DNA of 43,901 bases. Source: Candidatus Micrarchaeota archaeon. GTDB taxonomy: Archaea; Micrarchaeota; Micrarchaeia; Micrarchaeales; CABMGC01. Under the pieces are notes generated by a model that made no database searches, was not told the DNA's origin, and worked only from the letters and a program-made list of their open reading frames with translations. The stretch lies in contig JASHUB010000069.1 in the NCBI GenBank assembly GCA_030040265.1, positions 1 through 43,901 of the forward strand, in the 5' to 3' direction. Positions 7,382 to 42,778 of this stretch are shown here, in pieces; position 1 is the stretch's first letter, and each line of letters opens with the position of its first letter. Made by a program: the position numbers and the translations under genes.

Positions 7382-7460
7382 GCCATCCCCTGATAATAAG
7401 CAGATAGATTATGGTGCTAAACAATATTTAATATTATGCTTCTCTATCTAATGAGATGCC

Positions 7461-7820: not shown

Positions 7821-7856
7821 GTGTTCGTGTTGCAAAAAGAGACAAAAGAGTTCTTC

Positions 7857-8186: not shown

Positions 8187-8190
8187 TCGG

Positions 8191-8718: not shown

Positions 8719-8723
8719 CGCCG

Positions 8724-9806: not shown

Positions 9807-10087
9807 ACTTTGCACCCTGCAAGAACCTATGCAAGTCAATGTTTTTATAGCGTGTGTACGGGCCAAAAACCGAAGAGTTCGTCAGGATTTATATATCTGC
9901 AAAAGCAACCTGTTATCGGCGTTTAGAGCATATTCTTATAATCTTCCCACTCTCTAAACGTCTCCTACTCAACTCGGCATTCCACAACCCGGCAGGCATT
10001 GGAAACAGCTTAAAAGCTTGGCGTCGGGTCTATTAACGGGATACTGGTTATTAAGGCTATCCCGGCAATATATAGTGTGATACTCTT

Positions 10088-12139: not shown

Positions 12140-12150
12140 GCTCGACGATA

Positions 12151-13197: not shown

Positions 13198-13207
13198 TGC
13201 ACCATGC

Positions 13208-13873
13208 ATGACGGCTACGCACAGCTGTGATTGGATGGATAAGAAAGAGCTCGTTAAGCAGATAATGAATGGCAAGAGCAAGTGGCACAATCTGGGCGGG
13301 GTGGATCTCAGGCGGGTGCGGCTGCCAAACTCCAATCTCAAGGGTTCTAACTTGGGTGGCGCGAACCTATCCGAAGCAAACCTCAAGTCTGCATACCTGC
13401 GTGCAGCTAACTTCGGTGGAGCAGACCTGGGTTATGCGAACCTGTCAAAGGCTGACATGCAGTGCGCATGTTTCGGTGGTGCAAACATGGGCTACACCAA
13501 TTTTTCCAGTGCAGACCTGCGCGGCGCTAACATGAGCGGTGCGTACTTAGGATATGCAAATCTCTCGAACGCGAACCTTCAGGACGCCTACATGTGGGGT
13601 GCATACCTCAAGGGCGCAAACCTCAGGAGAGCTAACCTCCGCAACGCATACTTCAAAGGAGCTAACTTCAAGAGTGCAGACCTGCGCGGCGCTGTTGTGG
13701 GCAACACAGACTTCCGCGGGGCAAGCTTCGAAAACGCCCTGATAAGCAGGGCGCAAGCAGCAACTCTGCTCATCACATTAAGCCTAACAAAGACTGACAA
13801 TGTGAAGACACTAGTCCGCACTGGTCAGGCATTCAAATTGCTCAAGCATGAGCTCGGTGCCAGGGTGGTGTAG
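13208..13873 (+). CDS. Pentapeptide-repeat protein
   Basis: About 30 consecutive A(D/N)LxG-type pentapeptides (ANLSEANLKSAYLRAANFGGADLGYANLSKADM...). Starts 11 nt after the top6A stop on the same strand. Alternative start ATG at 13235. Confidence 0.85.
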   Translation: MTATHSCDWMDKKELVKQIMNGKSKWHNLGGVDLRRVRLPNSNLKGSNLGGANLSEANLKSAYLRAANFGGADLGYANLSKADMQCACFGGANMGYTNFSSADLRGANMSGAYLGYANLSNANLQDAYMWGAYLKGANLRRANLRNAYFKGANFKSADLRGAVVGNTDFRGASFENALISRAQAATLLITLSLTKTDNVKTLVRTGQAFKLLKHELGARVV

Positions 13874-15676: not shown

Positions 15677-15700
15677 GCCCTTAGACTATAACGATGTAAG

Positions 15701-15710
15701 ATTTAAATAT
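15701..15710 (+). promoter_or_regulatory. TATA-like box upstream of the hypothetical gene at 15744
   Basis: atttaaatat lies 34-43 nt upstream of the ATG at 15744, in the short divergent spacer shared with the ATPase gene. Confidence 0.35.
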
Positions 15711-15743
15711 GCAGTATACAAAAGAGTCTACATTGGTGACGTC

Positions 15744-16415
15744 ATGGGACCAGCATTACAAATCAGGGGAGAGCGGAGGGCTTTGACCCCGAAGTACGAC
15801 CTCTCCGAGCTCCTTTCGTTGAGCGCAGAGAAGCCCCGGCAGCTAGTGGCGCAATTGAGGGAGAACCTGCGCGGCTTTGAGAACTGGCGGCTGACGGCGC
15901 TGCTTGAGTCCGTTAGGCAGAAGATAGGCGAACGAAGAATTGGTGTCATGCACGACAACGAACTCGGATCGCAGATGAGCGAAGAGGACAGAGCGCTGTT
16001 GCTGATCGGTGCGGTTGCTGCAGAATGCATCTCGGCTGCGAACCTCCGCGCGAAGATCTATGACAAGGCAAAAGAATTTACGTTCCTTGCGACGGATTAC
16101 TTCGCCAGGGCTGGCATGGGTGCATTCTCGAGGGCTGCGCCTTTCGCCCACACGATGCGAGTCGTGGAGCATGGTATCTCGCTCATAGAGCTCGGGAACG
16201 AGCTTGAAGGTAAAGGCGTTCTTGCCGGGGCTGTGCTGGCAGGATATGATATGAAGCTGAGCAAGAACCAGTTGACCGCGCTTGTGGGCATAGTCGAACG
16301 GCCTATTGGAGGAAGGTCGCAGATAAACGTGTTCATGCATGCGCAGCGGCCTTTCGACAGGCCTATGGTCTACACCGGCCCTGACAGGGACTTTGCACCG
16401 CTTTCAAGGCCTTGA
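15744..16415 (+). CDS. Hypothetical protein (no recognisable motif)
   Basis: Long ORF. I prefer the ATG at 15744 because atttaaatat (15701-15710) lies about 35 nt upstream. The ORF-track start at 15669 would overlap the divergent ATPase start. Confidence 0.5.
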   Translation: MGPALQIRGERRALTPKYDLSELLSLSAEKPRQLVAQLRENLRGFENWRLTALLESVRQKIGERRIGVMHDNELGSQMSEEDRALLLIGAVAAECISAANLRAKIYDKAKEFTFLATDYFARAGMGAFSRAAPFAHTMRVVEHGISLIELGNELEGKGVLAGAVLAGYDMKLSKNQLTALVGIVERPIGGRSQINVFMHAQRPFDRPMVYTGPDRDFAPLSRP

Positions 16416-19765: not shown

Positions 19766-19774
19766 ATGAACACT

Positions 19775-20074
19775 TCATTTGTGCTTAAACTCTATCTTCG
19801 GTTCCGGCCTGTATGTCAGCCGCGCGAGAATCTCACGCAGCTGCTCCTCGGTTATCTTCCCGGCGATCTTGTTCGATTGCGCCATGGCGAGTATCCAGTC
19901 CGTGAGCTTCTCATAGAGCTCGCGGTTGGCGACCCGCACGTTCATGAACCTCTCGAACGCTTCCGGGGTGAGATATTTCTTGATCATCTCCTTCTTCTGT
20001 TGCGCAACCTGCATTTCGCGCAGCCTCTTTTGAAGGGCCTTCTTCATCTTTTCGTCCTGGGCCTCTTCGGGCAC
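19775..20074 (-). CDS. PDCD5/TFAR19-like DNA-binding protein (COG2118 family)
   Basis: About 99 aa, basic and helical. YLTPEAFERFMNVRVANRELYEKL...KITEEQLREIL fits the PDCD5-like family. Conserved position between rps19e and rpl39e. Confidence 0.75.
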   Translation of the reverse strand: MPEEAQDEKMKKALQKRLREMQVAQQKKEMIKKYLTPEAFERFMNVRVANRELYEKLTDWILAMAQSNKIAGKITEEQLREILARLTYRPEPKIEFKHK

Positions 20075-20082
20075 GCGACCGC

Positions 20083-20493
20083 CTACGCCAGCACTTCCTT
20101 GGCTACCTTGTCAAGGAAGGACTTACCCTTCGGTGTGATGACACGCCCGACCTTTTCCTTCTTCACGTATCCCTGCTTCTCCAGGGCGTCGAACGCGTCC
20201 TTGATTATGCTTCCGCCAGCCCGCTGGTGGTGGTGGTGCCAGACCTTGTGCCGCTTTCTCGTCCCGTACTTTGTGCGGAGCGCAGAAACGCCTATCGGCC
20301 CGTTGATGTAAACCTGCCTCAGGACGGAGGCGCACCTCACGTACCAGAAGTCCGGGTCGCTGGGCACGCGCTCGCGGCTCGGGCCGGTCTTGACCATGTC
20401 CACGTAGACGGGCTTCTTCACGCCCTCGGCCTTCAGCTTCTCGGCGCTTTTCTTGATTAGCGACGCTGTGTCTGCTTCAAAAACGTTTGCCAT
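20083..20493 (-). CDS. rps19e: Ribosomal protein S19e
   Basis: DPDFWYVRCASVLRQVYINGPIGVSALRTKYG...GGSIIKDAFDALEKQGYV. I prefer the ATG at 20493 (MANVFEAD) over the ORF-track start at 20532. Confidence 0.88.
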   Translation of the reverse strand: MANVFEADTASLIKKSAEKLKAEGVKKPVYVDMVKTGPSRERVPSDPDFWYVRCASVLRQVYINGPIGVSALRTKYGTRKRHKVWHHHHQRAGGSIIKDAFDALEKQGYVKKEKVGRVITPKGKSFLDKVAKEVLA

Positions 20494-20649: not shown

Positions 20650-20928
20650 TTGGTCGATATTATGAAGCTGAATGTGGTTGAGTCAGACGCAAAGAGCATA
20701 ATCATTGAATTCGAGGAGGCGGACAGGGGCATCGCAGAGCTCATAAAGGACAAGATCCTCGAAAACAAGGACATCGAGTTCGCCGGCGTGGTCAAGGAGC
20801 ACCCGCAGGTAGGGAATCCGAGGCTCATCGTGAAGGCGGAAAAGAACGCCCGCGGCATAGTGCTGAAGGCGGTCGAGTCGCTGCAGGACGACCTGAAGGA
20901 GCTCACCTCGCACCTGCCGAAGAAGTAG
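20650..20928 (+). CDS. rpoL: DNA-directed RNA polymerase subunit L (Rpo11)
   Basis: About 90 aa. LNVVESDAKSIIIEFEEADRGIAELIKDKILENKDIEFAGVVKEHPQVGNPRLIVKA fits the RpoL/Rpb11 fold pattern. Start is TTG at 20650 or, more likely, ATG at 20662. Confidence 0.8.
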   Translation: MVDIMKLNVVESDAKSIIIEFEEADRGIAELIKDKILENKDIEFAGVVKEHPQVGNPRLIVKAEKNARGIVLKAVESLQDDLKELTSHLPKK

Positions 20929-20932
20929 TCCC

Positions 20933-21490
20933 ATGCTGAAGAAGGGTTCGCGGATACTAGCCCTGGACGATGGCCATTTTACAAGGGGCCGCGGAAGGGT
21001 CCTCGTCGTTGGCGTCATCGGAAGGGACGCCGGAATCGAGGGCATACTGTCTTTTGACGTCGCAATAGACGGCAGCGACGCGACCGAGCGCCTTCTCCTC
21101 AAGATAAGCAAGTCTCGGTTCGGAGGGCAGATAAAGCTAATCGCCATGAACGGGGTCTCTTTCGGTGGAATGAACATAGTTGACCTGGAGAGGGTGAACC
21201 GGGAACTGCACCTTCCCGTGCTTGCGATCACGAGGAAGAGGCCCAGGAGGAGCCTGTTGATAAGCGCTGTGAAGAAGATGCGCGTAAAGGACGCGAAGGA
21301 TAAGGAGAGGATGATAAGGTCTTTCGCAAAAGCATCGACGACAGAACACATCAATGGCTTCTACGTCCAGAGGCTGGGGATCAACGAGGATGATGCAGAA
21401 AAGGCGCTTCCGGTTGCGGTGCAGCTTACCAGGCTGGCGCACCTTGTCGCGAGCGGCGTGACAAAAGGAGAGTCTGTAGGCAGGATATAG
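20933..21490 (+). CDS. DUF99/UPF0215-family protein (endonuclease-V-like fold)
   Basis: ILALDDGHF, VVGVIGR, AIDGSDATE, IAMNGVSFGGMNIVD, LPVLAITRKRP match my recollection of archaeal UPF0215 motifs. Family assignment is from memory, not from an HMM search. Confidence 0.6.
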   Translation: MLKKGSRILALDDGHFTRGRGRVLVVGVIGRDAGIEGILSFDVAIDGSDATERLLLKISKSRFGGQIKLIAMNGVSFGGMNIVDLERVNRELHLPVLAITRKRPRRSLLISAVKKMRVKDAKDKERMIRSFAKASTTEHINGFYVQRLGINEDDAEKALPVAVQLTRLAHLVASGVTKGESVGRI

Positions 21491-21491
21491 C

Positions 21492-22427
21492 TTATTTCTT
21501 GCCCTTGTCGTCGAAGCCGTCCTCGCCTCTTGGAGGCTGCCTGAAAGTCTTGTTCAGATTCAATATGATTTCCTCCTTCTTTGCCTCGAAGCCGGTTAGC
21601 AGCTCTTGGATCATGCTGAGCTGCTCCAGGGAGGTTATCCTCCCCATGGACTTGAGGTCCACGATACCCTTGGATAGGCCCTTCGCAAAGGCGGTCGCGA
21701 AGGCTATGGCGTCTACGATCCTTTTCTCGGATGCCTTGCTCGCTTTCCCCCTGCTCGCGTCCTTCCGGATGGATGCTTCGTACTGCTTCGAGCCGATGGA
21801 CAGGAGATCGTTTGAGAGCATCGCGTAGGCGGGCCGCATCTCGGCGGTGAACATGCTCATGAAGTCTATGTATTTTGCGAAGACGTCGAGGGATTGCACG
21901 ACCCCTCCATCGTAGAACAGCAGAATCCAGCCAGTCACGTAGTGCGCCCACATGTTCGAGTGGCCGCGCGCGTCCATATGCTCTAGGAATGCGGAGAACT
22001 CCTTCCGGCTCTTTGCGAGGTGGGCAGCGATAGGGACTAGGTCGAGCAGGACTCTCTGGATGTCAAGGTCCTCGACACCGGCGCGGAGCAGCAGCCTGTC
22101 AACTGCGGTCACAGCGGCGGCAGCGTGCCCGGCGTTGCTTTCGAATCTCTTGGCTGCGGTAAGGAACGCCTGCGATGCCTTGGACGCAAGTACGGGATCC
22201 TGTCGCAGGGATAGCATCCGTGCATGCCATAGCTGCACCGCGTCATCGTTCCTTGTGGCTTTCGAGATTGCGTTGCCGCAGGCGAATAGCTCTTCTGCGA
22301 TCTTGGGATCCCTGCCGGTGAACTGTGCCCGGACACCCTGGACCGCAGACGCGGCCGCCTCCCCTGCGGATCTTGCGACCTCTTTGAGGGTCGATTCGAT
22401 TGTTGGGTAAGCCCGAGGCTGATGCAC
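21492..22427 (-). CDS. Hypothetical protein, predicted all-alpha, no recognisable motif
   Basis: 311-aa ORF filling the space between two confidently called genes. No family recognised by eye. Confidence 0.5.
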   Translation of the reverse strand: MHQPRAYPTIESTLKEVARSAGEAAASAVQGVRAQFTGRDPKIAEELFACGNAISKATRNDDAVQLWHARMLSLRQDPVLASKASQAFLTAAKRFESNAGHAAAAVTAVDRLLLRAGVEDLDIQRVLLDLVPIAAHLAKSRKEFSAFLEHMDARGHSNMWAHYVTGWILLFYDGGVVQSLDVFAKYIDFMSMFTAEMRPAYAMLSNDLLSIGSKQYEASIRKDASRGKASKASEKRIVDAIAFATAFAKGLSKGIVDLKSMGRITSLEQLSMIQELLTGFEAKKEEIILNLNKTFRQPPRGEDGFDDKGKK

Positions 22428-23448: not shown

Positions 23449-24366
23449 CTACGGCCTTATCGTGATCTGCCAGTTCTGGTAGTGCACGTCCTCAAGCGGC
23501 TTGGTCGGGATGTGGCCCGGCGCGTCAGCCTTAGGCGCTTCTGTAACGACGTTCGTGGCACTTGGGGATGATGGAGCAAATGAGCTAGGCACAATGATTG
23601 TTAAGCCATCGTTTGTGGGTATCTTTACTATCCCGCCTTCCCTGTTCCTGGCATCCTCCATGGCATTTAGGCGCATCGCTTTCTGCAGGAGCTCGGAATC
23701 CTTCGCCAAGCGCGCTGCGTTAGCTTCGAATTCTGCCGTGTCGAACGGCTTTCCGAAGAAGGTCTCGCACATTGCGTCGAAGAAGTGGTCCCTGGCTGTG
23801 AATACTTGAACGCCCTTTAGGCCACGCTCCTCTGCAACCCTCCATGCAGTAAGCCTTCTTTGGGCATCCTTAAGGTGGGTATCGATGTCGAACGTGCGCT
23901 CGAACGAGAGCGAGTATGGGCCGCGCTTCATGGCCAAAAGTTGGAGCTCGACGAGCCCAGTGGCCATGTCCATGCTGTCCTTAACTATCACGTATCCCTG
24001 GAAACTGGAGTCGTGTATGTGGTAGAGCCCTACGTGTGACATGCTGGTGCCATGTTGGACCTCCTGCCTGTATTCCAGCCTCTCCTTTATCTGGAGATGT
24101 TTTCCATCAACGGTTACGAATAACAGCTCTATGCCTGGATACGCCCCTCTTGTTCCGTATTTTAGAGAGAAAATGGCGTCGCGGACCTCGGACACCCTCT
24201 TCTCGGGGTTGCCGCGGTACAGCGTGACTGCCTTGTGCTTTGTAGTGAGGGGAGCTGGGCATTCGCTCAGGAATCTCCTCAGATTTTCTGCCGGTGTGAC
24301 CGGCCTCTGCCCGAAGGCAGCGATGCTCGTGGTTTGTGGTTTTGCATTTCCGTACATTTTGTTCAC
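23449..24366 (-). CDS. Hypothetical protein (305 aa), no recognisable motif
   Basis: Long ORF with no competing gene on either strand. No family recognised by eye. Confidence 0.5.
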   Translation of the reverse strand: MNKMYGNAKPQTTSIAAFGQRPVTPAENLRRFLSECPAPLTTKHKAVTLYRGNPEKRVSEVRDAIFSLKYGTRGAYPGIELLFVTVDGKHLQIKERLEYRQEVQHGTSMSHVGLYHIHDSSFQGYVIVKDSMDMATGLVELQLLAMKRGPYSLSFERTFDIDTHLKDAQRRLTAWRVAEERGLKGVQVFTARDHFFDAMCETFFGKPFDTAEFEANAARLAKDSELLQKAMRLNAMEDARNREGGIVKIPTNDGLTIIVPSSFAPSSPSATNVVTEAPKADAPGHIPTKPLEDVHYQNWQITIRP

Positions 24367-31374: not shown

Positions 31375-32412
31375 ATGAGGGCCCAGGCTGCGGTAGAGTT
31401 CCTTACTACTTACGGTTTTCTCCTGTTGATGCTCGCAGCCGTGCTCGTTCTGCTCGCATTCTATACATTCTTTCCGCAGGCGGCCATACCGCAGCAGTGC
31501 ACCGCCTACGGAGGCCCAAGCTGCAGCTTCATAAACCTCTTCAGCAACACGACTGGCCGCTACTCGCTAGTCACGCTGGTGCTTGCGAATGCGCAGGCGA
31601 TACCGATAAACATCAGCAGCGTGACCGTATCGATAAGGAGCCTGAATTTCAAGGGAGCATGCACTCCGAACTTCGTGCTTCCGGGCCAGGAAGCGACTTG
31701 CGTAGCTTACCTGAACGAGTCTTTGCCCCTTGGCACAGTGGTGCAGGGCTTCTACTCCTTGCCAGCGACGTTCTGCAACTCCGGGATAGGCAGCCTGAAC
31801 GGCACATGCGCATATGAGAACGCCACTTACACAGGGGCATTCAGCACAAGCCCCGAGACCGATAGCGTCGTGGTGTTCAGCGTTGCGGCTGCGCAGAGTT
31901 CTCCGACGGTTAACTCGATAGCGCTGCCTGCAGCGCCATACCTGCCAGCAGGGTTCAGTACGGCGCAGAATGGGGACTGGGTCGTGGGCCAGCATAATGG
32001 CATAGTTGGCTACGCGTTCGCGACCAGCACCTACCAAGGAACACAGTTCAACGGATTCGACGCGGCGCAGTTCCCATCCATAGTCTCGTCCCTCAATAAC
32101 GGGAACGTGGCCTGCTCCGGCAGCAGGAACTCGACTATGTCGCTCGCTTATACGACGTTTTATCTTCCTGGAGGAGCGTCCCTGCCGACTTCGATCTCCA
32201 CGGCAGGCTACATGGAAGTGTATTACAAGTCGTCAACCGCTACGGTCTGGGCGCCATTGTACAACGGCGCAGCGTGGCGGCAGAGCACCCCTGCGCAGTT
32301 CACCAACACGATAATCGCGAACCCGGGATACGAAAACGTCGCGGTGGTTTGGGTAAACACCTGCAGGCAGGACGTCCAGGCGCTGAACATGTCCGGAGTG
32401 CCACGCTCATGA
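31375..32412 (+). CDS. Secreted protein with an archaeal class III (type IV pilin-like) signal peptide
   Basis: The N-terminus MRA|QAAVEFLTTYGFLLLMLAAVLVLLAF has a short basic leader, a putative prepilin-peptidase site before Q, Glu at mature position +5, then a hydrophobic helix. The S/T/N-rich body carries at least 7 N-x-S/T sequons. catataaat (31345-31353) lies upstream. Confidence 0.6.
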   Translation: MRAQAAVEFLTTYGFLLLMLAAVLVLLAFYTFFPQAAIPQQCTAYGGPSCSFINLFSNTTGRYSLVTLVLANAQAIPINISSVTVSIRSLNFKGACTPNFVLPGQEATCVAYLNESLPLGTVVQGFYSLPATFCNSGIGSLNGTCAYENATYTGAFSTSPETDSVVVFSVAAAQSSPTVNSIALPAAPYLPAGFSTAQNGDWVVGQHNGIVGYAFATSTYQGTQFNGFDAAQFPSIVSSLNNGNVACSGSRNSTMSLAYTTFYLPGGASLPTSISTAGYMEVYYKSSTATVWAPLYNGAAWRQSTPAQFTNTIIANPGYENVAVVWVNTCRQDVQALNMSGVPRS

Positions 32413-34129: not shown

Positions 34130-34450
34130 TTACTTCTTCTTCGGCTCGGGAGTCGATGTCTGGACCTCGAGGATGTGGTTCTTGACCACTTTTATGACCT
34201 GGTCTATGGCCTTCCTTATGTCCGTCTCGGTCTTCGCACCGGTGCAGATTATCTTTCCGTTCTTGAAGAGCAGAAGCGCCGTCTTCGGCTCCTTTATCTT
34301 GCATATTGCGCCTGGGAACTGCTCGGGCTCGTAGTCCACGTCCGAAGAGTCCTTGGCTATGCCGTATAGGTCCAGGTCCACGCCAAGGTCGGCGCTGGCG
34401 ACTATGTTTTCTATCTTAAAATCAGGGTGAAGCGTGATCTTCTTTGCCAT
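34130..34450 (-). CDS. tbp: TATA-box-binding protein consisting of a single TBP repeat (106 aa)
   Basis: FKIENIVASADLGVDLDL...DYEPEQFPGAICKIKEPKTALLLFKNGKIICTGAKTETDIRKAIDQVIKVV aligns by eye to either repeat of canonical archaeal TBPs. The ORF is bounded by an AT-rich promoter region upstream and by the dedA stop downstream, so no second repeat can be encoded here. Confidence 0.8.
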   Translation of the reverse strand: MAKKITLHPDFKIENIVASADLGVDLDLYGIAKDSSDVDYEPEQFPGAICKIKEPKTALLLFKNGKIICTGAKTETDIRKAIDQVIKVVKNHILEVQTSTPEPKKK

Positions 34451-34535: not shown

Positions 34536-34823
34536 ATGACACAGCGTTCGCATGGACTGTTTATAGGAAGGACGAGGAACCTCTCGAGGCACCACAAGCC
34601 GTCGACACTAGGCCTCACGAAGCTCATCAAGGACTTCAAGGTGGGTGACAGGGTGGTCGTTGTCCCTAGGTCCAACCTGAAGAACATACCGCACCCGAGG
34701 TACAGGGGTCGCGTGGCTGTCGTCATCGAGAAGAGGGGCAACTCGTACGTCGTCGAGCTCAACACCTCGAAGTACACCAAGAGGACGCTGATTGTGCCAC
34801 AGATGCACCTGGAGCGCGCTTAG
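34536..34823 (+). CDS. rpl21e: Ribosomal protein L21e
   Basis: MTQRSHGLFIGRTRN...FKVGDRVVVVP...HPRYRGRVAVVIEKRGNSYVVEL...LIVPQMHLERA. I prefer the ATG at 34536 over the ORF-track GTG at 34434, which lies inside the promoter region. Confidence 0.9.
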   Translation: MTQRSHGLFIGRTRNLSRHHKPSTLGLTKLIKDFKVGDRVVVVPRSNLKNIPHPRYRGRVAVVIEKRGNSYVVELNTSKYTKRTLIVPQMHLERA

Positions 34824-34837
34824 TGCCGGCGGAACCC

Positions 34838-37800
34838 TTATCCTCTCTTTGTCGCTTGCAGGTCATCATCGTTATCTTTGCCATTAGTGTCGATGCCGGT
34901 AAATCGTGGAAGGTTGATATCTTCGTCTGATGCGATGCCGTCTACGAGAAGATTGAACATCCTCTCCTGTACGCCAATTCTTCTGTACATGAAAGAATCA
35001 TAGGTGCCCTGTTCGAAGAAGGTATCATATGCCGTTGCATCCTGCGCTGTAACCTCGGCTTTTGGCACGATAGCATACCCCTGTTCCGTCTTCCTGACGT
35101 GTGTCTTTCTCATTTCCTCCAGGAATGGCGTTGGGTACCTGCAGGAAATCTTGTGGATTCGGATATCGTAATGCGTTTTCGTGTTTGGAGTATCGATCCT
35201 ATCAAGTCTGTTCAGCGCCTGATAATACTCCGTATAAGTGTTCGGTGCGTCTGCAAAGATGATCGTTTTCCCGGCGTTGAGCGTTATTCCAACACCGCCG
35301 GTGTCATAGGTGCATATCATAACCTTTCGCTCCGGCGCTTGCATGAACGTTAGTCTCTCGAAGTCTATGGCCATCATCGGGCTGCCGGTTGGATCCTCTA
35401 TGGGGTAACCATTTTTATCCATGGCGAATCCTTTTTCCTTGTCGTAGCAGAAAAGCTTCGGGTTGCCGGCTCCGTCTTTCAGGTAACCCTGATCGCTGAT
35501 GGTGCCGGTAAGAATTGCTGGTTTGTGGGTTCGGAGCAGCTGCTCATACGCTTCGGCTTCCTTAAGATACCGCACGTAGATCACAGTCTTCCTGCCGTCA
35601 CGAACATTTTCCTCCACGGCCTGAACCACGGCATTGTGCTTCGCGCTCTGTTCATCGGAACCGACGTAAGAAGGATTGTTCATCGATTGCAGCAAAGCAT
35701 GCTTCTTGATGAGTTGATTGCCCTCCCAGACCTCCCTGTCACCAGCCAGATAGTGGCCGTACTTCTCTGACCAGCCCCTCCAATTCAGGAACATATCCAA
35801 TACCGAGCGTGCCTGCGCGTCGGTCAATTCGAACTCGGTGACCGGCATGCGGGTCTTTATGGGCAGTCTGCCATGCTGCTCCGCTAGCGGTATAGCTGGG
35901 TCGTATTCGTCAAGTACCTCCTCTTTTCTAAACCTAACAACTAGTGGGTCTGCCAAGGCGAAGAGCGCCCTGTATGACGCAGGATCCGAACGGTCAAATG
36001 CTTTAGCAAAGCTGGATTCGCTCTCGAACCTCTCATCATCGGGAAGTAGGTAGTTGAACATCGCGCGGTACTTGCTGATATTTGGATACGGAGTCGCCGT
36101 GACGATTATGACGAAGTCTGGGGTGAGCCTGCCAAGCCCCTTGCTCTGGTTTGTGTCGGTATTAGTCAGCCAGTGTGCCTCGTCTACAACTAGAATTCCA
36201 TCCTGCCCCAACGCAGAATTGAGGAGCTCGAACCGTTCTTCGTCTTCCGCGTCTCTTAGGAACTCTTGATTTGTCAGCATGCTCGATCGTTCACCGCCCC
36301 TTCTCGTTCTGGAGAGCACTTCTTGCCTTATTGCAGCCTTTCGTGCATCCCTTGGCAGACCGTGGAGTAAAGTCAGCCTTTCATGGGGCAGGAACCTTGA
36401 TCTTTGCTCGTCCCATGTGCTAGCAACGCTGTTTGGAGTCACGATTAAGCCTGCCCTCTGAAGGGATTGCAGCGCGGCTAAGGTCGTAAGGGTCTTCCCT
36501 AAGCCCGCCTCCAATGATAGTATGACTCCCTTGCTCCTATCTGCACGTCGCACGGCTTTCCGGATCTTGTGTATGGCATACTTCTGGTAGAAAAGCAGCT
36601 CTTCGCCTTCTGCCAATGCCGGATAGGGTTCAGATCGGATTAGCCTAAAAGTCCCCAAAACCTGCTCCAATCCGCGTCTCACGACCTCGCTGTCTTCCCG
36701 TTTTATCAGGTCCGCCACGCTCGACTCTGCGCTCTCAAAGGAGTATACGAATCTCTTTATCAGGGTTTCTTCGAGCACGTCCACAAGCAAGTCGAATGCA
36801 CCGGCATCCGTCTTGAGCCGGGCTAGTGCATCAGAGCCCATCTGCCGCACCGCTTCGAGAAGCCTTTCGGCATCGGAAGCCTCGCTAGATTGTCTGATTG
36901 TCGAGGTTCTAACCTCACTTCTTGTCTTATCATCAGTGTTTATCGCGAATAGCCTTAGTTCATTGTGTTTGCCTAGGGTAAGCGGAATCGTTGCCTGGAA
37001 CTCGCCATTGACCACTCTGATTCGTCTGCCAAAAGGTCCAGCGATGTATACATGAGTCGCAGCATCTGCTGTGCCTTTGACCGTTAGCGTCTTCCCGCTT
37101 GTGACCACAGGGATAACCGTTTGCATAGATGGACCTTTGAGCGAAATCGAGAATTTCAGATACTCGGATTCCCTGTCGCCCCCTGTCCTATTTAGAGCGT
37201 GGAAAGAGGTTAAGACCAGCCTGTCTGACGCCCCTTCGGTTAGGTTTGGATTAGATAAAAGCAGGAATTTCTTCATTTGGATCGGGTGTTCTCCTAGCAA
37301 GGCTATGACATTTCCCAGGTTCATCTTTTCTGCAATCTCTAATTCCTTGTCCTCCCTGAGCCCCTCCAACTCACCGGAATGAATGTTTCTGAGCGCTTCT
37401 TCCCGCGTCATGCCATAAGAAGACAGTTCTAGGAAATCCCTGGCTTCTACATGAGAGGTAATACCCTTTATGCCTGAACTTTTCAGGCTTCTGGTAATTC
37501 CATAGAATGTTAGTTTGTAGGTCAAGTCGCTGTGGGTTATGGAGACCTCCCTGCGATCGCCTACGGAGAGTTCGGAAATCGATCTGTCCGGGTTGCCATC
37601 GAGGAGCTGCTGGCGTATCGCATCCCTTGCGGCGTCCACGAATTTGTCATCGGACCAGAGCGCTGGTGGGAGGAGCATCCTTGATTTGTTGCCGGAAAGG
37701 AAATCCCTGGCGTCTAGGAAAGAGGTAAGGCCTTCTACCTCGGAACATAGACATCGGAGGATATTCGTAAAGGCGGGTTTGTAGGTCACGTCATTGTAGG

Positions 37801-40168
37801 TTATGGCGACTTCTGTGTGGTCATTTGTCGAGATCTCTGAAATGGACCTGTTGGGATCGCCGCCGAGGAGCTGCTGGCGAATTGCTTCCCTTGCAGCGTC
37901 CACGAATTCGTCATTGGACCAGAGCTCTGACGGAAGAAACATCCTTGATTTATTGCCGGAAAGGAAATCCCTGGCTTCTGTGGGGGTAGTGATGCCTTCT
38001 ATGCCGGAATTTCTCAGACTTGTGATAAGTCTAACGAATGTGAGTTTGTAGGTCACGTAGTTGTGGGTTATGGAGACCTCCCTGTGATCATTTGTGGAGA
38101 GTTCGGATATTGATCTGTCCGGGTTGCCATCGAGGAGCTGCTGGCGTATCGCATCCCTTACGGCATCTACGAATTTGTCATCGGACCAGAGCGCTGATGG
38201 GAGAACCATCCTTGATTTGTTGCCGGAAAGGAAATCCCTGGCTTCTGTGGCAGTGGTGATGCCGTCTATGCCAGAACGTTTAAGGCTTTGGAGAATTCCC
38301 ATGAAGGTGGGTTTGTAGGTTATACAATTGTAAATTATTGGAACCTCCGTGTTGTCCTCTGTCGAGATCTCTGAAATGGACTTATTGGGATCTGCGCCGA
38401 GGAGCTGCTGGCGAATTGCTTCCCTTGCAGCGTCCACGAATTTGTCATTGGACCAGAGCGCTGGTGTAAGAAACCTCCTTGATTTATCACCGGAAAGGAA
38501 ATCCTTGGCTTCTGCGCGGTGTGTGATGCCAGGCATGCCTGAACTCTTTAGACTTACGAGAATGCCCGGGAAGGTGATAGTATAGGTCACGTAGTTGTGG
38601 GTTATGGAGACCTCCCTGTTATCACCTACAGAGAGTTCGGAAATCGATCTGTCCGGGTTGCCATCGAGGAGCTGCTGGCGTATCGCATCCCTTACAGCAG
38701 CTACGAATTTGTCATCGGACCAGAGCGCTGATGGAAGAACCATCCTTGATTTGTTGCCGGAAAGGAAATCCCTGGCTTCTGTGGGAGTGGTGATGCCTTC
38801 TATGCCAGAACGTTTAAGGCTCGCGAGAATTCCAACGAAGGTGAGTTTGTAGGTCACGTAGTTGTGGGTTATGGAGACCTCCCTGTTATCACCTACGGAG
38901 AGTTCGGAAATCGATCTGTCCTGGTTGCCATCGAGGAGCTGCCGGCGTATCGCATCCCTTACGGCATCTACGAATTTGTCATTGGACCAGAGCGCCGGTG
39001 GGAGAACCATCCTTGATTTGTTGCCGGAAAGGAAATCCTTGGCTTCTGTGGCAGTGGTGATGTCTGCTATGCCAGAACATATGCTTCGGAGAATTCCCTC
39101 AAAAGTGGGTTTGTAGGTCACACCGTTGTGGGGTATAGAAACGTTCCTGCAATCACCTACCGAGAGTTCGGATATTGATCTGTCTGGATTGCCATCAAGG
39201 AGCTGCTGGCGTATCGCATCTCTTGCAGCGTCCACGAATTTGTCATCGGACCAGAGCGTTGATTGGAGAACCATCCTTGATTTATTGCCGGAAAGGAAAT
39301 CCCTGGCTTCTGTGGTAGAGGTGATGCCTTTTATGCCAAACGTTACCGGGCTTTGGAGAATTCCATGAAAGGTGAGTTTGTAGGTCACGTCGTTGTAGGT
39401 TACGGGAACCTCCCTGTTATCACCTACGGAGAGTTCGGATATTGATCTGTCTGGATTGCCATCAAGGAGTTGCCGGCGTATTGCGTCCCTTACGGCATCT
39501 ACGAATTTGTCATTGGACCAGAGCGCTGGTGAGAGACGTGCCCTTGATTTATTACCTGAAAGGAAATCTCTGGCTTCTGGAGGAGAGGTGATGCCTTCTA
39601 TGCCAGAACATATGCTTCGGAGAATTCCCTTGAAGGCTAGTTTGTAGGTCACATCGTTGTGGGTTATGGCGACCTCCCTGCGATCATTTGTGGAGAGTTC
39701 GGATATTGATCTGTCTGGATTGCCATCAAGGAGCTGCTGGCGTATCGCATCCCTTACGGCATCTACGAATTTGTCATCGGACCAGAGCGCTGATGGGAGA
39801 ACCATCCTTGATTTGTTACCGGAAAGGAAGTCTCTGGCTTCTGAAAGGGAGTTGATGCCCTCTATCCCGGAATTTTTCAGACTTGCGATAAGTCCAACGA
39901 AGGTGAGTTTGTAGGTCACGTCGTTGTGGGTTATGGAGACGTCTCTACTGTCCTCGGTTGATATTTCTGAAATGGACCTGTTGGGGTCGTCGCCGAGGAG
40001 CTGCTTCCGTATGGCATCCCTAGCCGCAGTCACGAATTCATTATTAGACCACAGCACTGGTGGGAGACGTTTTGGTGACTTCGTTTTAAGAGCCGGCGGT
40101 TTCGCCTCTTGGCCTATGTTTACGCCGCTTTGTGGCTGCTTTGGCGGCGATCTAACTATGGGTGGCAC
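34838..40168 (-). CDS. Giant (1776 aa) protein: 10 tandem ~89-aa repeats, a beta-rich middle region, and a C-terminal SNF2-family ATPase
   Basis: SNF2 motifs: Q-like LFYQKYAIHKI; I LEAGLGKT (36491-36514); Ia IVTPNSVASTWDEQ; II VVDEAHW (about 36173-36184); III IIVTATPYPN; V TYDTGGVGITLN; VI QALNRLDRID (35192-35221). N-terminal repeats span aa ~35-912. No nuclease, methylase or integrase motif recognised. Confidence 0.85.
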   Translation of the reverse strand: MPPIVRSPPKQPQSGVNIGQEAKPPALKTKSPKRLPPVLWSNNEFVTAARDAIRKQLLGDDPNRSISEISTEDSRDVSITHNDVTYKLTFVGLIASLKNSGIEGINSLSEARDFLSGNKSRMVLPSALWSDDKFVDAVRDAIRQQLLDGNPDRSISELSTNDRREVAITHNDVTYKLAFKGILRSICSGIEGITSPPEARDFLSGNKSRARLSPALWSNDKFVDAVRDAIRRQLLDGNPDRSISELSVGDNREVPVTYNDVTYKLTFHGILQSPVTFGIKGITSTTEARDFLSGNKSRMVLQSTLWSDDKFVDAARDAIRQQLLDGNPDRSISELSVGDCRNVSIPHNGVTYKPTFEGILRSICSGIADITTATEAKDFLSGNKSRMVLPPALWSNDKFVDAVRDAIRRQLLDGNQDRSISELSVGDNREVSITHNYVTYKLTFVGILASLKRSGIEGITTPTEARDFLSGNKSRMVLPSALWSDDKFVAAVRDAIRQQLLDGNPDRSISELSVGDNREVSITHNYVTYTITFPGILVSLKSSGMPGITHRAEAKDFLSGDKSRRFLTPALWSNDKFVDAAREAIRQQLLGADPNKSISEISTEDNTEVPIIYNCITYKPTFMGILQSLKRSGIDGITTATEARDFLSGNKSRMVLPSALWSDDKFVDAVRDAIRQQLLDGNPDRSISELSTNDHREVSITHNYVTYKLTFVRLITSLRNSGIEGITTPTEARDFLSGNKSRMFLPSELWSNDEFVDAAREAIRQQLLGGDPNRSISEISTNDHTEVAITYNDVTYKPAFTNILRCLCSEVEGLTSFLDARDFLSGNKSRMLLPPALWSDDKFVDAARDAIRQQLLDGNPDRSISELSVGDRREVSITHSDLTYKLTFYGITRSLKSSGIKGITSHVEARDFLELSSYGMTREEALRNIHSGELEGLREDKELEIAEKMNLGNVIALLGEHPIQMKKFLLLSNPNLTEGASDRLVLTSFHALNRTGGDRESEYLKFSISLKGPSMQTVIPVVTSGKTLTVKGTADAATHVYIAGPFGRRIRVVNGEFQATIPLTLGKHNELRLFAINTDDKTRSEVRTSTIRQSSEASDAERLLEAVRQMGSDALARLKTDAGAFDLLVDVLEETLIKRFVYSFESAESSVADLIKREDSEVVRRGLEQVLGTFRLIRSEPYPALAEGEELLFYQKYAIHKIRKAVRRADRSKGVILSLEAGLGKTLTTLAALQSLQRAGLIVTPNSVASTWDEQRSRFLPHERLTLLHGLPRDARKAAIRQEVLSRTRRGGERSSMLTNQEFLRDAEDEERFELLNSALGQDGILVVDEAHWLTNTDTNQSKGLGRLTPDFVIIVTATPYPNISKYRAMFNYLLPDDERFESESSFAKAFDRSDPASYRALFALADPLVVRFRKEEVLDEYDPAIPLAEQHGRLPIKTRMPVTEFELTDAQARSVLDMFLNWRGWSEKYGHYLAGDREVWEGNQLIKKHALLQSMNNPSYVGSDEQSAKHNAVVQAVEENVRDGRKTVIYVRYLKEAEAYEQLLRTHKPAILTGTISDQGYLKDGAGNPKLFCYDKEKGFAMDKNGYPIEDPTGSPMMAIDFERLTFMQAPERKVMICTYDTGGVGITLNAGKTIIFADAPNTYTEYYQALNRLDRIDTPNTKTHYDIRIHKISCRYPTPFLEEMRKTHVRKTEQGYAIVPKAEVTAQDATAYDTFFEQGTYDSFMYRRIGVQERMFNLLVDGIASDEDINLPRFTGIDTNGKDNDDDLQATKRG
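37431..40066 (-). repeat. Coding tandem array: 10 units of 264-267 bp (88-89 aa)
   Basis: The landmark ggaccagag (complement of the LWS codons) recurs at 37652, 37916, 38183, 38450, 38717, 38984, 39248, 39515 and 39779, with a variant at 40046. Spacings are 264 or 267 nt. Adjacent units are highly similar at the nucleotide level. Confidence 0.95.
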
Positions 40169-40219
40169 TGCTTCACCAGATGTATGCTATCGTATTTGCA
40201 TAGGATGGATGGATTGTCG

Positions 40220-40227
40220 TATATAAA
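40220..40227 (-). promoter_or_regulatory. TATA-like box upstream of the giant SNF2-repeat gene
   Basis: Minus-strand tttatata lies 52-59 nt upstream of the ATG at 40168, inside the inserted segment. The gene therefore appears to carry its own promoter. Confidence 0.35.
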
Positions 40228-40273
40228 GTAGCTTGTGGAAATGTACAAAACGGCACTAACCGCGTCGCTCGCA

Positions 40274-40303
40274 GTGCCGCAGATGCACCTGGAAAGGGCC
40301 TGA
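40274..40303 (+). pseudogene. Relic duplicate of the rpl21e 3' end (last 9 codons + stop)
   Basis: gtgccgcagatgcacctggaaagggcctga here versus gtgccacagatgcacctggagcgcgcttag at 34794-34823. They are 23/30 identical, both translate to VPQMHLERA*, and all 7 differences are synonymous or stop-to-stop. The relic stop abuts the stop of the convergent gene at 40304. Confidence 0.75.
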
Positions 40304-40879
40304 CTAATTCTTCTTAGAATGCTTTTCTGCTAGTTTATCGAGCTTCGCGAACGCCGTGTCGTCGGGCTTCTGCACCTGTTCCCCCAGCTTGAAGTAGTGC
40401 CTGTTGTAACGTATCAAGGGCTTTATGCTCTCGTTCTCCGTGGCGTAGACCACGTCGCCTATGAAGCAGACATGGTCTCCCAGCTGCTTGTACTCCTTCA
40501 GCTTGCATTCCATGACCAGCGGGCTTCCGTCGACAATCCAGGCGTCTATCTTCTTCGCCTTGTGCATGGGCACGCCGAGCTCCTTGAGCATGCCTATCTT
40601 GTCGACCAGCTTTCCGCTCTCCCAGCCACCTATGCTACAGACCATGTTCTGGTCATCGGCAGCGAGGCTGATGCCGAACTCCTTCGATGCGATTATGTTC
40701 TCGGCCGTGGCGTTCCCTCCGTGCACGTTTACCTGCACTATCGATGGCGAATAGGAGACGTGGTGCGTCCATTCGCACGTCATTATGTTGTAGCCGTTCG
40801 GTCCGTTGGTGGTGATGAGCCCGAGGTTCGTCACGAACATCAGCCTTGCCTTCGTGTCATGTCCCAGATAATCCATCAT
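40304..40879 (-). CDS. Flavin reductase-like FMN-binding (split-barrel) domain protein
   Basis: LITTNGPNGYNIMTCEWTHHVSYSPSIVQVNVH fits the flavin_reduct domain pattern. 191 aa. Confidence 0.75.
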   Translation of the reverse strand: MMDYLGHDTKARLMFVTNLGLITTNGPNGYNIMTCEWTHHVSYSPSIVQVNVHGGNATAENIIASKEFGISLAADDQNMVCSIGGWESGKLVDKIGMLKELGVPMHKAKKIDAWIVDGSPLVMECKLKEYKQLGDHVCFIGDVVYATENESIKPLIRYNRHYFKLGEQVQKPDDTAFAKLDKLAEKHSKKN

Positions 40880-40880
40880 A

Positions 40881-41597
40881 TCACTTAAGCATGATCTCTA
40901 TGCGCTTCCTCCTTGTGCCTTTGTTCTCGTAGTTGCTGAGAGTTATCGTGCCCAACTCGCTCGTGTTCGCGACGTGCGTACCGCCGTCAGCCTGCGTGTC
41001 GACGCCTTCTATCTCGACCACCCTGACCCGCTTGAGGGTCTCCAGCAGCTTCCTGCCAGGTTCCGTCCGGGCAAGGCGGGTCGCCTTCGCGGCCTCCTCG
41101 ACGCTTATCTCCCTGCAGTTTATCCTGTGCCCTTCCTTGGCGACCGCATTCGTCTTGTCGAGTATCTCCTGCACCTTCTCTCTGCTCAGGTCCGGCATGT
41201 CTATGTCTATCCTTGCGCGCTCGGGATATATCTGGCCTCCGGTTATCATGCCAGAACCGTAGTAGACCTCGATGACTCCGTCGAGCGTGTGCAGCGCCGT
41301 GTGCAGCCTCATGCATGCATACCTCCGGTTCCAGTCTATCGCGCATCTTGCGGCATCGCCGGGCTTTGCGTCGACGTTTCTGTCAAGGATGTGCACTACG
41401 TCATCGCCTTCCTTCTTGAGCCCAGTGACCCTGTATTCTGCGCCGTTGACCGTTATCATGCCCGTATCATCTGGCTGTCCGCCGCCCGCTGGGTAGAATA
41501 TCGTCCGGTCGAGGACGAGCTGGTTGCTCTCTGCCCTGGTTACCGTCGCCTCGAGCTCCTTCGCATATGAATCGACGAGGTACACCTTTTCAGTCAT
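40881..41597 (-). CDS. alaX: Alanyl-tRNA editing protein AlaX (misacylated tRNA(Ala) deacylase)
   Basis: Zinc motifs MRLHTALH and ADGGTHV (the Cys of the canonical CGGTH motif is replaced by Asp). N-terminal YLVDSY..FYPAGGGQPDD. The ATG at 41597 overlaps the upstream CYTH stop (ATGA). The ORF-track start at 41717 lies inside the CYTH gene. Confidence 0.8.
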   Translation of the reverse strand: MTEKVYLVDSYAKELEATVTRAESNQLVLDRTIFYPAGGGQPDDTGMITVNGAEYRVTGLKKEGDDVVHILDRNVDAKPGDAARCAIDWNRRYACMRLHTALHTLDGVIEVYYGSGMITGGQIYPERARIDIDMPDLSREKVQEILDKTNAVAKEGHRINCREISVEEAAKATRLARTEPGRKLLETLKRVRVVEIEGVDTQADGGTHVANTSELGTITLSNYENKGTRRKRIEIMLK

Positions 41598-42175
41598 GCC
41601 TTGCCACCAAACGCATATCCGTTCTTCTTTAGAATCATGTAGGGATACCCGTAAACCTCTTCGGGCCCGCACTCCGCGCCCAGTTCCTTGAGCACCGAGT
41701 ACAGGTACTTCCTGCACTCCTTCGGGTCATCGAAGTGCTTCAGCGCCTCGACCTCGATGAACCGGCCCAGTCCCTCGACCTTGTCTATGGCTATCTCCGT
41801 GTCTTTGAACTCCCATGTGTCCCTGGACTTGTCCACGACGGCGAGCTCTCTGAAGCCGAGGTTCAGCAGGATCTTCTTGATCTGCTCTGCGCTCTCCACG
41901 TGCGTCTCGAACTCGTCGGCGTAGTCGTGCACGGCAGCGCCCTCTGGCTTGTAGTGCTTGAACGTTATCGAAGCTCCGTTCTTCGCCTCCCTGACCCTGA
42001 GCCACTCTGAAGGGTGCTTCGGGCTGAGGAAGTCCCTTGAGGGGTGGTTGAAGTAGGTGTCCCTCTGCACGATACCTTTCGCCTTCGGTTTTGACTTTGC
42101 TTCCAAGAACTCGACTACCTTTTCCTCGTTGAGGAGAGGCAACTTTATCTCTATCTCCACATCCTGGCTTGCCAA
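41594..42175 (-). CDS. CYTH-domain protein (class IV adenylate cyclase / triphosphatase family)
   Basis: N-terminal ExExK signature (VEIEIKLPL). Size (193 aa) and beta-barrel pattern (WLRVRE..., ITFK, IDKVEGLGRFIEVE) are typical of CYTH/CyaB. Confidence 0.75.
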   Translation of the reverse strand: MASQDVEIEIKLPLLNEEKVVEFLEAKSKPKAKGIVQRDTYFNHPSRDFLSPKHPSEWLRVREAKNGASITFKHYKPEGAAVHDYADEFETHVESAEQIKKILLNLGFRELAVVDKSRDTWEFKDTEIAIDKVEGLGRFIEVEALKHFDDPKECRKYLYSVLKELGAECGPEEVYGYPYMILKKNGYAFGGKA

Positions 42176-42187
42176 TAGGGCACCCCG

Positions 42188-42778
42188 TTACCTGTGCTGT
42201 TCCTCCATGTGCTTGGAGTATGGCCTTGATAATACGTAGAACCTCGACTCGCCCTTCAGCTCGACGAGGACGCGCTCCGCGAGCAGCTTGACCGGGTCCT
42301 GCAGCAGCGGCACGCGCGCCGTTATGTCTGCGAAGGACTCGAACTTCTTCTGGTCCCTAGCGTCGAGTATGGCTGTGAGGTGCTTCTTGCCAACGCTCGG
42401 CAGCAGCTCTAGCGAGTGCATCCTTATGTTGAGCGGGCCTGCGTTGTTGAACAGCTCCACGAACTTCGCCTCGTTCTTCTTGATTATCTCAGATATGACG
42501 TTGACTATCTCCTTCTTAGCGCCCTCCGTGAGCTCCTCGTACTTTATCCTTGACTTGATCAGCGATATCTTGTCGCGCTCGCCCTTGCCTATGTAGACGC
42601 GCTCGCCGACCTTCAGGGCAGGACCCTTCGGTATCGCCTCAAGGAGCGTGAACTTGTTCTCCCCCATGAGCTGCACCAGCGGCTCTGACTTCGCGGAGAA
42701 GGATCTTCCGGTAGGGAGATAGTCTAGGACTACAGCGTATTCCTCCAAATCCCCTCCTTTATGCTGCTCCATCTCCAT
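42188..42778 (-). CDS. DUF655 / COG1491 predicted nucleic-acid-binding protein
   Basis: EEYAVVLDYLPTGR, the OB-like N-terminus, and the C-terminal helix-hairpin-helix region (LELLPSVGKKHLTAILDAR) fit the family that follows rpoF in archaeal genomes. Confidence 0.75.
   Translation of the reverse strand: MEMEQHKGGDLEEYAVVLDYLPTGRSFSAKSEPLVQLMGENKFTLLEAIPKGPALKVGERVYIGKGERDKISLIKSRIKYEELTEGAKKEIVNVISEIIKKNEAKFVELFNNAGPLNIRMHSLELLPSVGKKHLTAILDARDQKKFESFADITARVPLLQDPVKLLAERVLVELKGESRFYVLSRPYSKHMEEQHR

Follow-up and report, generated by a model that had tools for sequence, protein, structure and literature searches.

How does a gene for a giant protein, in which ten tandem modules precede an SNF2-type ATPase, come to lie behind a ribosomal protein gene of an archaeon, and what might such a protein do? 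The question is raised by one open reading frame (ORF) on contig JASHUB010000069.1 (assembly GCA_030040265.1, Candidatus Micrarchaeota archaeon). Positions 1 to 43,901 of this contig, the whole stretch of DNA that was analysed, are called the window here. The original prediction, made from the sequence alone, described the ORF as the sole cargo of an insertion and as a candidate single-gene system. It is well supported that the gene is a functional accessory gene gained by horizontal transfer, and that the 3' end of rpl21e in a DPANN archaeon, probably a member of the Micrarchaeota, received it as a one-gene cassette. It is also well supported that the protein belongs to a family defined by a block of about 860 amino acids (aa), consisting of a helical cap, a probable immunoglobulin-like (Ig-like) sandwich, a helical region and the SNF2 motor. 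In front of this core there is always a tandem array, made up of 3-10 or more modules that are each 70-115 aa long and differ in type by lineage. All sequences discussed are metagenome assemblies, and the taxonomic labels of their bins are those of the depositors.

The ORF lies on the minus strand at window 34838-40168. It consists of 1776 codons plus a stop, begins with GTG, and its frame is unbroken over 5.3 kb. A four-part architecture had been proposed for it, with a basic tail, a ten-module array, a middle region and an SNF2 motor, and this is borne out by ORF and domain analysis (Table 1). The array is evident at both the nucleotide and the protein level. Tandem Repeats Finder reports a period of 267 nucleotides (nt), 9.4 copies and a score of 2762, and a repeat search places ten copies at a spacing of 264/267 nt, with nucleotide identities of 63-85% to the reference copy. 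The protein contains ten corresponding units of 88-89 aa. To call them near-identical, as was done at first, is an overstatement, since their pairwise identities range from 57% to 84% with a mean of 70%.

Judged by its sequence, the motor is a bona fide member of the SNF2/Swi2 family of superfamily 2. Both lobes exceed the gathering scores of Pfam: SNF2-rel_dom (PF00176) reaches 58.9 bits over residues 1207-1418 (gathering score 24.9), and Helicase_C (PF00271) reaches 24.7 bits over residues 1612-1658 (gathering score 23.5). Lobe 2 holds an insertion and is followed by a C-terminal helical region. The motor had been described as complete, and all of the motifs then quoted are present. The residues of motifs I, II, III, V and VI are invariant in five family members (alignment A3) and give no cause for doubt about the predicted ATPase competence. 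A profile of the family matches the structures of ISWI, Fun30, Chd1, HELLS and SsoRad54 at an expect value (E) of about 1e-15, and no subfamily is singled out. Translocation on double-stranded DNA is the default activity of SNF2 enzymes, while accessory domains set what the motors do. By analogy, this motor would be a double-stranded-DNA translocase like other SNF2 enzymes.

The middle region is the conserved linker of the family. The beta-rich segment noticed in it earlier does give an Ig-like signal, a match to Pfam Glucodextran_B (E 5e-4 in the window protein, 1.7e-4 in relative L014), but a weak one that stays below the Pfam threshold in both.

Relatives of the protein are few. Searched at full length with a word-indexed method, it matches nothing besides itself. 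With the C-terminal 877 aa as query, two relatives appear, P0002 (1118 aa, 46% identity) and P0003 (1308 aa, 37% identity). An exhaustive HMMER search with a profile of the module matches six proteins among 1.84 billion representatives: the window protein, P0007, P0009, P0010, P0011 and one LPXTG surface protein, which is considered a repeat-summed false positive. The linker and motor are common to P0002, P0003, P0007, P0009 and the product of locus L012, with identities of 37-47%. The survey for repeat-number variation that the original prediction proposed thus gives three, five, seven (diverged), four and at least 3 modules, respectively, in front of the same core in these archaeal relatives. 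The ten units of the window protein form the longest homogeneous array in the family.

The core also occurs in bacteria. When the core alignment is scanned against one genome per GTDB species (185,579 genomes), seven loci are found. Two are labelled Candidatus Micrarchaeota, and the others Peregrinibacteria, Peribacteria, Omnitrophica and unclassified bacteria. In bacterial members L014-L018, alignments span the entire linker and motor, with 30-37% identity. Their arrays are built of three other types of tandem module, roughly 70, 100 and 115 aa long. Comparison by hhalign of the archaeal module with these three types, and of the three with each other, gives a probability of at most 1.6%. As far as sequence comparison can tell, the family therefore comprises about ten relatives, with arrays of 3-10 copies and at least four module types without detectable similarity. 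The protein is thus no one-off, but a member of a small family in DPANN archaea and in bacterial metagenome-assembled genomes (MAGs) with the same linker and motor. In two of the bacterial members, L017 8324-18463 and L018 864-13694 (one of them labelled Omnitrophica), the linker and SNF2 core, with 115-aa repeats of their own, begin frames that go on into giant C-terminal extensions. These frames exceed 3379 and 4276 codons, run to the end of the contig or locus, and have masked X runs inside.

Modules of the archaeal type are also found without the motor. P0010 (L009 10001-15466, GCA_021817125.1) has at least 8 diverged modules, a basic C-terminus and no SNF2 core; its C-terminus gives a weak Methyltransf_25 match (E 0.0017) below the gathering score. 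P0011 (L011 10001-11959) has three modules behind an unrelated N-terminus and likewise lacks the core. The module is thus a portable unit. In window 6416-13197, and again in L011 5440-9711, the genes for the replication factor C (RFC) small subunit, LonB and topoisomerase VI subunit A are found near one another, which suggests that the organisms of the window and of P0011 are related.

The arrays differ in how alike their units are. Identity within an array is 25-30% in P0007, P0010 and P0011, and 69-79% in the window protein, P0002, P0003 and L012. Internal units of P0002 and L012 are 81-85% identical within a protein and 63-73% identical between the two proteins, which indicates concerted evolution. 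The last unit of this pair keeps its positional identity.

Among viral contigs of IMG/VR, searches with the core alignment and the array find distant SNF2 proteins only and no family member. A scan of JGI metagenomes gives no family member among the matches listed. No description of the family was found in the literature searched, which covered SNF2 repeat proteins, DPANN/CPR lineages (CPR, candidate phyla radiation) and Omnitrophota giant genes; the helicase domains described for the latter are of the SecA type. New here are the module, the order of array, linker and motor, the recurrence of this order with swapped arrays, and the one-gene cassette without a recombinase at the end of rpl21e.

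Selection has kept the modules of the window protein intact. Among the ten units, the synonymous divergence (dS) is 0.57 and the ratio of nonsynonymous to synonymous divergence (dN/dS) is 0.34. These values mean that the units were duplicated long ago and that purifying selection acts on each of them; the array is neither a fresh expansion nor in decay. Constraint is uneven along the unit. Helix 1 is almost invariant (dN/dS 0.22), helix 3 (columns 56-65) reaches 0.68 and the loop after it 0.62. The most variable columns include 57, 60, 61 and 63-65, which lie roughly on one helical face of helix 3. A dN/dS of 1.48 at the variable columns was not counted as positive selection, because the columns had been picked by their variability and the estimate is hence circular. 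The array is neutral to acidic, with a net charge of -13 and an isoelectric point (pI) of 5.6. Across the family the array pI ranges from 5.0 to 9.6, so that its charge is not conserved. An acidic array with unconserved charge fits protein recognition better than generic nucleic-acid binding.

The module was said to belong to no assignable family, and it has indeed no relative among Pfam families, PDB sequences or Foldseek targets. Single units match nothing in Pfam, even at E up to 10, and the repeat profiles A1 (units of the window protein) and A4 (36 units from seven proteins) find no credible match among PDB sequences. The structure prediction and Foldseek search suggested for the repeats give the same result. 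An AlphaFold2 model of three units has a mean predicted local distance difference test (pLDDT) of 82.7 and a predicted template modelling score (pTM) of 0.50, so that the fold of the unit is clear and the geometry between units is not. A single-unit model based on a 34-sequence alignment reaches a pLDDT of 85.5 and a pTM of 0.79. Foldseek searches with the three-module and single-module models give best matches of E 1.0 in the PDB, with a TM of at most 0.31, and of E 0.19 in BFVD, with a TM of 0.40. Provisionally, and on the strength of these models, the 89-aa module appears to be without a known relative.

Several labels assigned to the full protein disappear when its units are taken singly. 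A vague likeness to haloarchaeal homing-endonuclease-associated repeats had been suggested and finds no support. On the full protein, DUF7401 (33 bits) and HVO_A0114 (19.9 bits) are sums over ten weak repeats without a significant stretch. Single units have no DUF7401 match, and HVO_A0114 matches one of the ten at E 0.11. The hemP, Peptidase_M20 and similar labels are repeat sums of the same kind and vanish for single units. The match to phrog_5415 (65 bits on the full protein) likewise reflects repeat summation: with units centred on the junctions it persists at E 0.019-0.085 in two of four window units and in none of the relatives. The matches of MpAFP_RII and the LPXTG protein (P0008) also arise by summation over repeats, here of a motif of a helix plus an NG-x-TY hairpin.

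Its borders suggest how the gene may have reached its place. It is the sole gene of a 5.48-kb segment between rpl21e and a flavin reductase gene. This segment is bracketed by a direct repeat, GTGCC(A/G)CAGATGCACCTGGA, whose copies at 34794-34813 and 40274-40293 agree in 19/20 nt; the longest chance match in 30 shuffles of the flank is 15 nt. Both copies encode VPQMHLERA-stop in frame. Past the 19/20-nt core there are 6 differences over 10 nt (4/10 identical), and the encoded ERA-stop is unchanged. The stop of the SNF2 ORF is separated from that of rpl21e by 14 nt, and its start codon from the second repeat copy by 105 nt. The composition of the gene is foreign as well. Its GC content is 0.508 versus 0.561 for the rest of the window, and at third codon positions (GC3) it is 0.570 versus 0.72-0.82 in eleven neighbouring genes. 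The proposal that the gene sits alone in an inserted segment of lower GC is thus confirmed by the flanking repeat, the single ORF and both measures of composition.

In the simplest history, rpl21e and the flavin reductase gene originally abutted. A circular DNA of about 5.45 kb would have brought in the SNF2 gene with its promoter, together with a sequence mimicking the end of rpl21e. Recombination within the 20-nt core would then have restored rpl21e and displaced its original end, which would survive as the second repeat copy. The arrangement is similar to Campbell-type site-specific integration in that direct repeats at both ends overlap the 3' end of a gene. It differs from it in that the 5.48-kb insert lacks an integrase or recombinase of its own. 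No integrase or transposase is present in the insert, which has one ORF only, or among the window genes scanned. A recombinase therefore acted in trans, or the mechanism was a different one.

A search for an empty site by means of the flanking flavin reductase found none. The only close match is L022, a contig of 2359 nt from Logan SRR21679883 that is 100% identical to window 39907-42265; it comes from the same strain and has the same insertion junction. Since this contig ends inside repeat 1, the array evidently breaks short-read assemblies. The next relatives of the flavin reductase are at most 55% identical in full-length matches and are not syntenic. Flanking direct repeats above the shuffle level are absent at five other family loci, and the window contains no tRNA genes or Rfam families. 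Upstream of the second repeat copy, the frame at window 40232-40273 (plus strand) reads LVEMYKTALTASLA, faintly like the L21e residues VVELNTSKYTKRTLI. It may be a diverged, element-borne fragment of rpl21e or a product of chance, and it has no similarity at the DNA level.

Table 1. Positions of the SNF2 gene, its parts and its borders in the window
Feature	Position	Strand	Remarks
Whole ORF	34838..40168	-	1776 codons plus stop, GTG start; homologues collinear over C-terminal 860 aa
Basic Pro/Lys-rich N-terminal tail, aa 1-34	40067..40168	-	net charge +6, SPPK and SPKR motifs; tail not conserved in relatives
Array of ten 88-89-aa modules, aa 35-921	37406..40066	-	predicted fold: short helix, long helix, turn, beta-hairpin, two helices
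Conserved linker, aa 922-1180	36629..37405	-	helical cap after last module, beta-sandwich, helical region; alignable in every family member, bacterial ones included
Probable Ig-like beta-sandwich, aa ~1023-1090	36899..37102	-	weak Pfam Glucodextran_B match below gathering score
SNF2-type ATPase, aa 1181-1776	34841..36628	-	motifs I GLGKT, II DEAH, III TATP, V GGVGITLN, VI QALNRLDR
Shine-Dalgarno-like motif GGTGA	40173..40177	-	4 nt before GTG start; read from sequence
TATA-box-like TTTATATA	40220..40227	-	52 nt upstream of GTG; putative, consensus match only
Direct repeat, copy A	34794..34823	+	last 9 codons and stop of intact rpl21e (34536-34823; Pfam Ribosomal_L21e)
Direct repeat, copy B	40274..40303	+	orphan relic encoding VPQMHLERA-stop; abuts stop of convergent flavin reductase gene (40304-40879)

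The start of the protein can be placed in two ways. The gene call in the database (P0001) is 1739 aa long and begins 37 codons downstream of the GTG. The first methionine of the 1776-aa ORF comes only near residue 122, with no ATG earlier. Because GGTGA precedes the GTG, the 1776-aa start is favoured, and the longer form is at least as likely as the database call. The putative TATA-like box of its own that the gene was said to have is present, and together GGTGA and TTTATATA would fit an archaeal ribosome-binding site and TATA box. The P0001 record bears a precomputed Pfam accession, PF26488.1, which is absent from the local copy of Pfam; the records of P0002 and P0003 are without it.

The surroundings of the gene differ from one family locus to the next. 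The flanks in the window hold rpl21e, a gene with a TATA-binding protein (TBP) domain, the flavin reductase gene, AlaX and a CYTH gene. The neighbours of relatives are, at different loci, rpl7ae and an M20 peptidase; an RNase-Z-like gene, NFACT and PcrB; rpoD; a GTPase and a GT4 glycosyltransferase; LonB and MscS; prolyl-tRNA synthetase; glycosyltransferases; and a carbamoyltransferase. No partner gene and no synteny is conserved across the family loci, and each member is a lone gene. The protein must therefore itself carry both recognition and activity. In most loci the GC content of the gene departs from that of the host contig, for example 0.424 versus 0.496 in L003 and 0.467 versus 0.547 in L008. 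Such a profile is that of a sporadically transferred accessory gene, and with six module-profile matches and different neighbours at every locus the gene is far from a universally conserved, syntenic core gene.

Some genes of the window deserve a brief description. At 34130-34450 (minus strand) lies the gene for a 106-aa protein with a single TBP repeat (Pfam TBP, E 8e-30, in one stretch). This monopartite TBP-domain gene is divergent from rpl21e, has an AT-rich promoter region of its own and belongs to a probable DPANN genome. Monopartite TBP-domain proteins are known in some Archaea (PMC3597702). Its position next to the insertion, on the native side, is treated as a coincidence. A 345-aa ORF at 31375-32412 (plus strand) has no Pfam match; by eye, MRAQAAVEFL and the hydrophobic stretch after it, at the N-terminus, resemble a class III pilin-type signal peptide of Archaea. 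A pentapeptide-repeat protein (Pfam E 2.5e-38) is encoded at 13109-13873 (plus strand). Its ORF as listed overlaps the end of topoisomerase VI A by about 90 nt, so that the gene probably begins downstream of the listed start. Five ORFs of 181-311 aa are without a Pfam match at E 0.001 (15669-16415, 19766-20311, 20683-21354, 21492-22427 and 23449-24366), and some of them may not be genes.

One obvious place to look for a function is antiviral defence, since SNF2 motors are part of systems such as DISARM, which the original prediction had in mind. The best PADLOC matches of the protein are DpdE (9e-12), ZorD and DrmD (1.7e-7), with which it has the SNF2 motor in common. All of these matches are confined to the generic motor; that to DpdE covers only positions 722-1030 of a profile of 1176. 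None of the dpdA-K genes is present in the 43.9-kb window. The partners of DISARM (drmA, drmB, drmC/drmE or a methyltransferase) are absent from the flanks, as are ZorA, ZorB and ZorC, and the protein lacks the C-terminal Mrr-type nuclease of Zorya. The relatives lie among housekeeping genes, and the sole defence-type gene at any locus is an AbiEii gene 8 kb away in L001. Membership in a known defence system is thus unsupported.

The protein also lies outside the Mot1, RapA and TAL effector (TALE) families, as it does outside DISARM, Dpd and Zorya, because a defining feature of each is absent. Mot1/BTAF1 is a eukaryotic Swi2/Snf2 ATPase with an N-terminal array of HEAT repeats that removes TBP from DNA. 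The likeness lies in the combination, within one polypeptide, of a long repeat array at the N-terminus with an SNF2 motor behind it, and in the proposed action, in which the motor would pull on DNA as the array keeps hold of a substrate; it is one of analogy, not of membership. The units here are alpha/beta modules of 88-89 aa, whereas HEAT hairpins have about 40 aa, and an Ig-like linker domain is probably present here. The window protein has no HEAT or ARM match in Pfam and no sequence or fold match to the Mot1 repeats. RapA/HepA is a bacterial Swi2/Snf2 ATPase associated with RNA polymerase and has no tandem array. It resembles the present protein in being a lone prokaryotic SNF2 protein, and its N-terminal domains bind a protein partner. 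The window protein, however, has no RapA-specific match in NCBIfam or Pfam; its best NCBIfam match is pilus_reg_Snf2 with 29.5 bits against a cut-off of 1100. With TAL effectors, PUF and PPR proteins it shares tandem similar modules, variation at few positions and a copy number that varies among relatives. Compared with TAL effectors, the unit is 2.5 times longer (88-89 versus 33-35 aa), contains a beta-hairpin and has no dipeptide like their repeat-variable diresidue (RVD), and the array is acidic and fused to an ATPase. Foldseek finds no match to them.

The most reasonable reading of such an architecture is a recognising array that feeds a translocase. As a tentative first choice, drawn by analogy with Mot1, the protein may be a horizontally mobile SNF2 DNA translocase whose array serves as a multivalent adaptor. 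The array would keep the motor attached to a target that is repetitive or polymeric; a DNA-bound protein or a nucleoprotein assembly is the most plausible one. ATP-driven translocation would then strip, slide or remodel this target, much as Mot1 removes TBP and as RapA acts on RNA polymerase. Contact would be made through the variable face of helix 3 in each module and the loops next to it. This reading is favoured because the array is acidic, module types are swapped, internal modules are homogenised, and there is precedent in Mot1 and RapA, where a protein-binding N-terminus works in combination with an SNF2 motor. Since unrelated module types are found on the same core, the core seems to require tandem multivalency and not any single chemistry of binding.

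A number of points weigh against this adaptor role. No partner gene points to a protein target. The charge argument is weak, because TALE repeats are not strongly basic either, and variation on one face of the module is also expected of an array that reads sequence. The repeat count rests on a short-read assembly, and the second assembly breaks inside repeat 1. Foldseek is insensitive on domains of about 90 residues, and the structure comparison covered the PDB and BFVD. Finally, the low pTM of the three-unit model leaves the orientation between modules uncertain, so that the array may form a superhelix or beads on a string.

Less probably, the array is itself a reader of nucleic acid in the manner of TALE or PUF proteins. 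The helix-3 face of each module would contact a short stretch of DNA or RNA, the array would spell the target, and the translocase (a methyltransferase in P0010) would be delivered to specific loci. This would suit the few variable positions with helical periodicity on an invariant scaffold, the differing module numbers of relatives and the SPKK-like basic tail, as well as the fusion of the module to two effectors of nucleic-acid type, SNF2 and the weak methyltransferase-like domain. It is at odds with the net acidic array and its unconserved charge, with the failure to find a DNA- or RNA-binding fold in the PDB, in BFVD or by sequence profile, and with the concerted evolution of internal modules, which in P0002 and L012 takes the place of positional identity. 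The unrelated modules of the bacterial relatives make a single shared recognition code unlikely. An immune or counter-immune role, suggested by analogy with ATPases that carry repeat sensors in prokaryotic immunity, is about as doubtful. Here a fast-evolving array would sense a foreign viral or host protein, and the SNF2 motor would act as switch or effector within a single protein; such a role overlaps with both modes of binding just described and is compatible with either. The patchy distribution over DPANN, CPR and Omnitrophica-labelled MAGs points in this direction, as do the horizontal acquisition with atypical composition here, in L003 and in L008, the wholesale swapping of recognition arrays on a conserved motor, and the fact that the top PADLOC matches are SNF2 subunits of defence systems. 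Those matches are limited to the generic motor, however, and the Dpd, Zorya and DISARM partners are missing nearby. The protein has no nuclease or other killing domain, the neighbours are housekeeping genes apart from the distant AbiEii, and viral contigs of IMG/VR carry no family member.

The remaining explanations are much less credible. The carrier lineages, by the labels of depositors, are mostly ultra-small, host-dependent groups, and a protein delivered into the host cell could remodel the nucleoid there, much as the DNA of plants is acted on by TAL effectors. This is very unlikely: the reading is purely circumstantial, the N-terminus has no signal peptide or secretion motif, and no secretion-system genes are adjacent. 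Hardly a better case can be made for an ordinary housekeeping SNF2 enzyme of chromatin or repair in which the repeats are incidental. Such an enzyme would account for the intact motor and the surrounding core genes, but not for the rarity of the family in 1.84 billion representatives and 185,579 species genomes, the lack of synteny between its loci, the insertion signature and the foreign GC3. An assembly artefact or a decaying pseudogene is the least credible of all. Repeats are hard to assemble, and the break of the second assembly in repeat 1 is a case in point, yet the units differ in 15-37% of their nucleotides and can be resolved by short reads. The frame is uninterrupted for 5.3 kb, the dN/dS speaks against decay, and full-length relatives have intact arrays.

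A broader reading, itself improbable, would combine several of these elements into a modular targeting platform. One SNF2 engine would be equipped with interchangeable, fast-evolving arrays, in which each module reads one element of a polymeric target, either a DNA sequence or successive subunits in a foreign nucleoprotein. Among ultra-small symbionts (DPANN, CPR, Omnitrophica), these genes would be traded across the boundary between archaea and bacteria for conflict with hosts or viruses. If this were true, the 89-aa module would be a new fold with a decipherable recognition code.

One engine behind differing arrays, in distant and mostly host-dependent microbes, suggests a device into which recognition arrays can be plugged. 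Should the arrays read a sequence or a repeated surface of a protein, they would represent a new class of programmable binders and a new prokaryotic way to aim a DNA translocase. If they do not, the gene would still be a clean one-gene cassette at the end of a ribosomal protein gene without a recombinase of its own, a marker for genes passing between DPANN archaea and bacteria of the CPR type, and the source of a candidate new protein fold.

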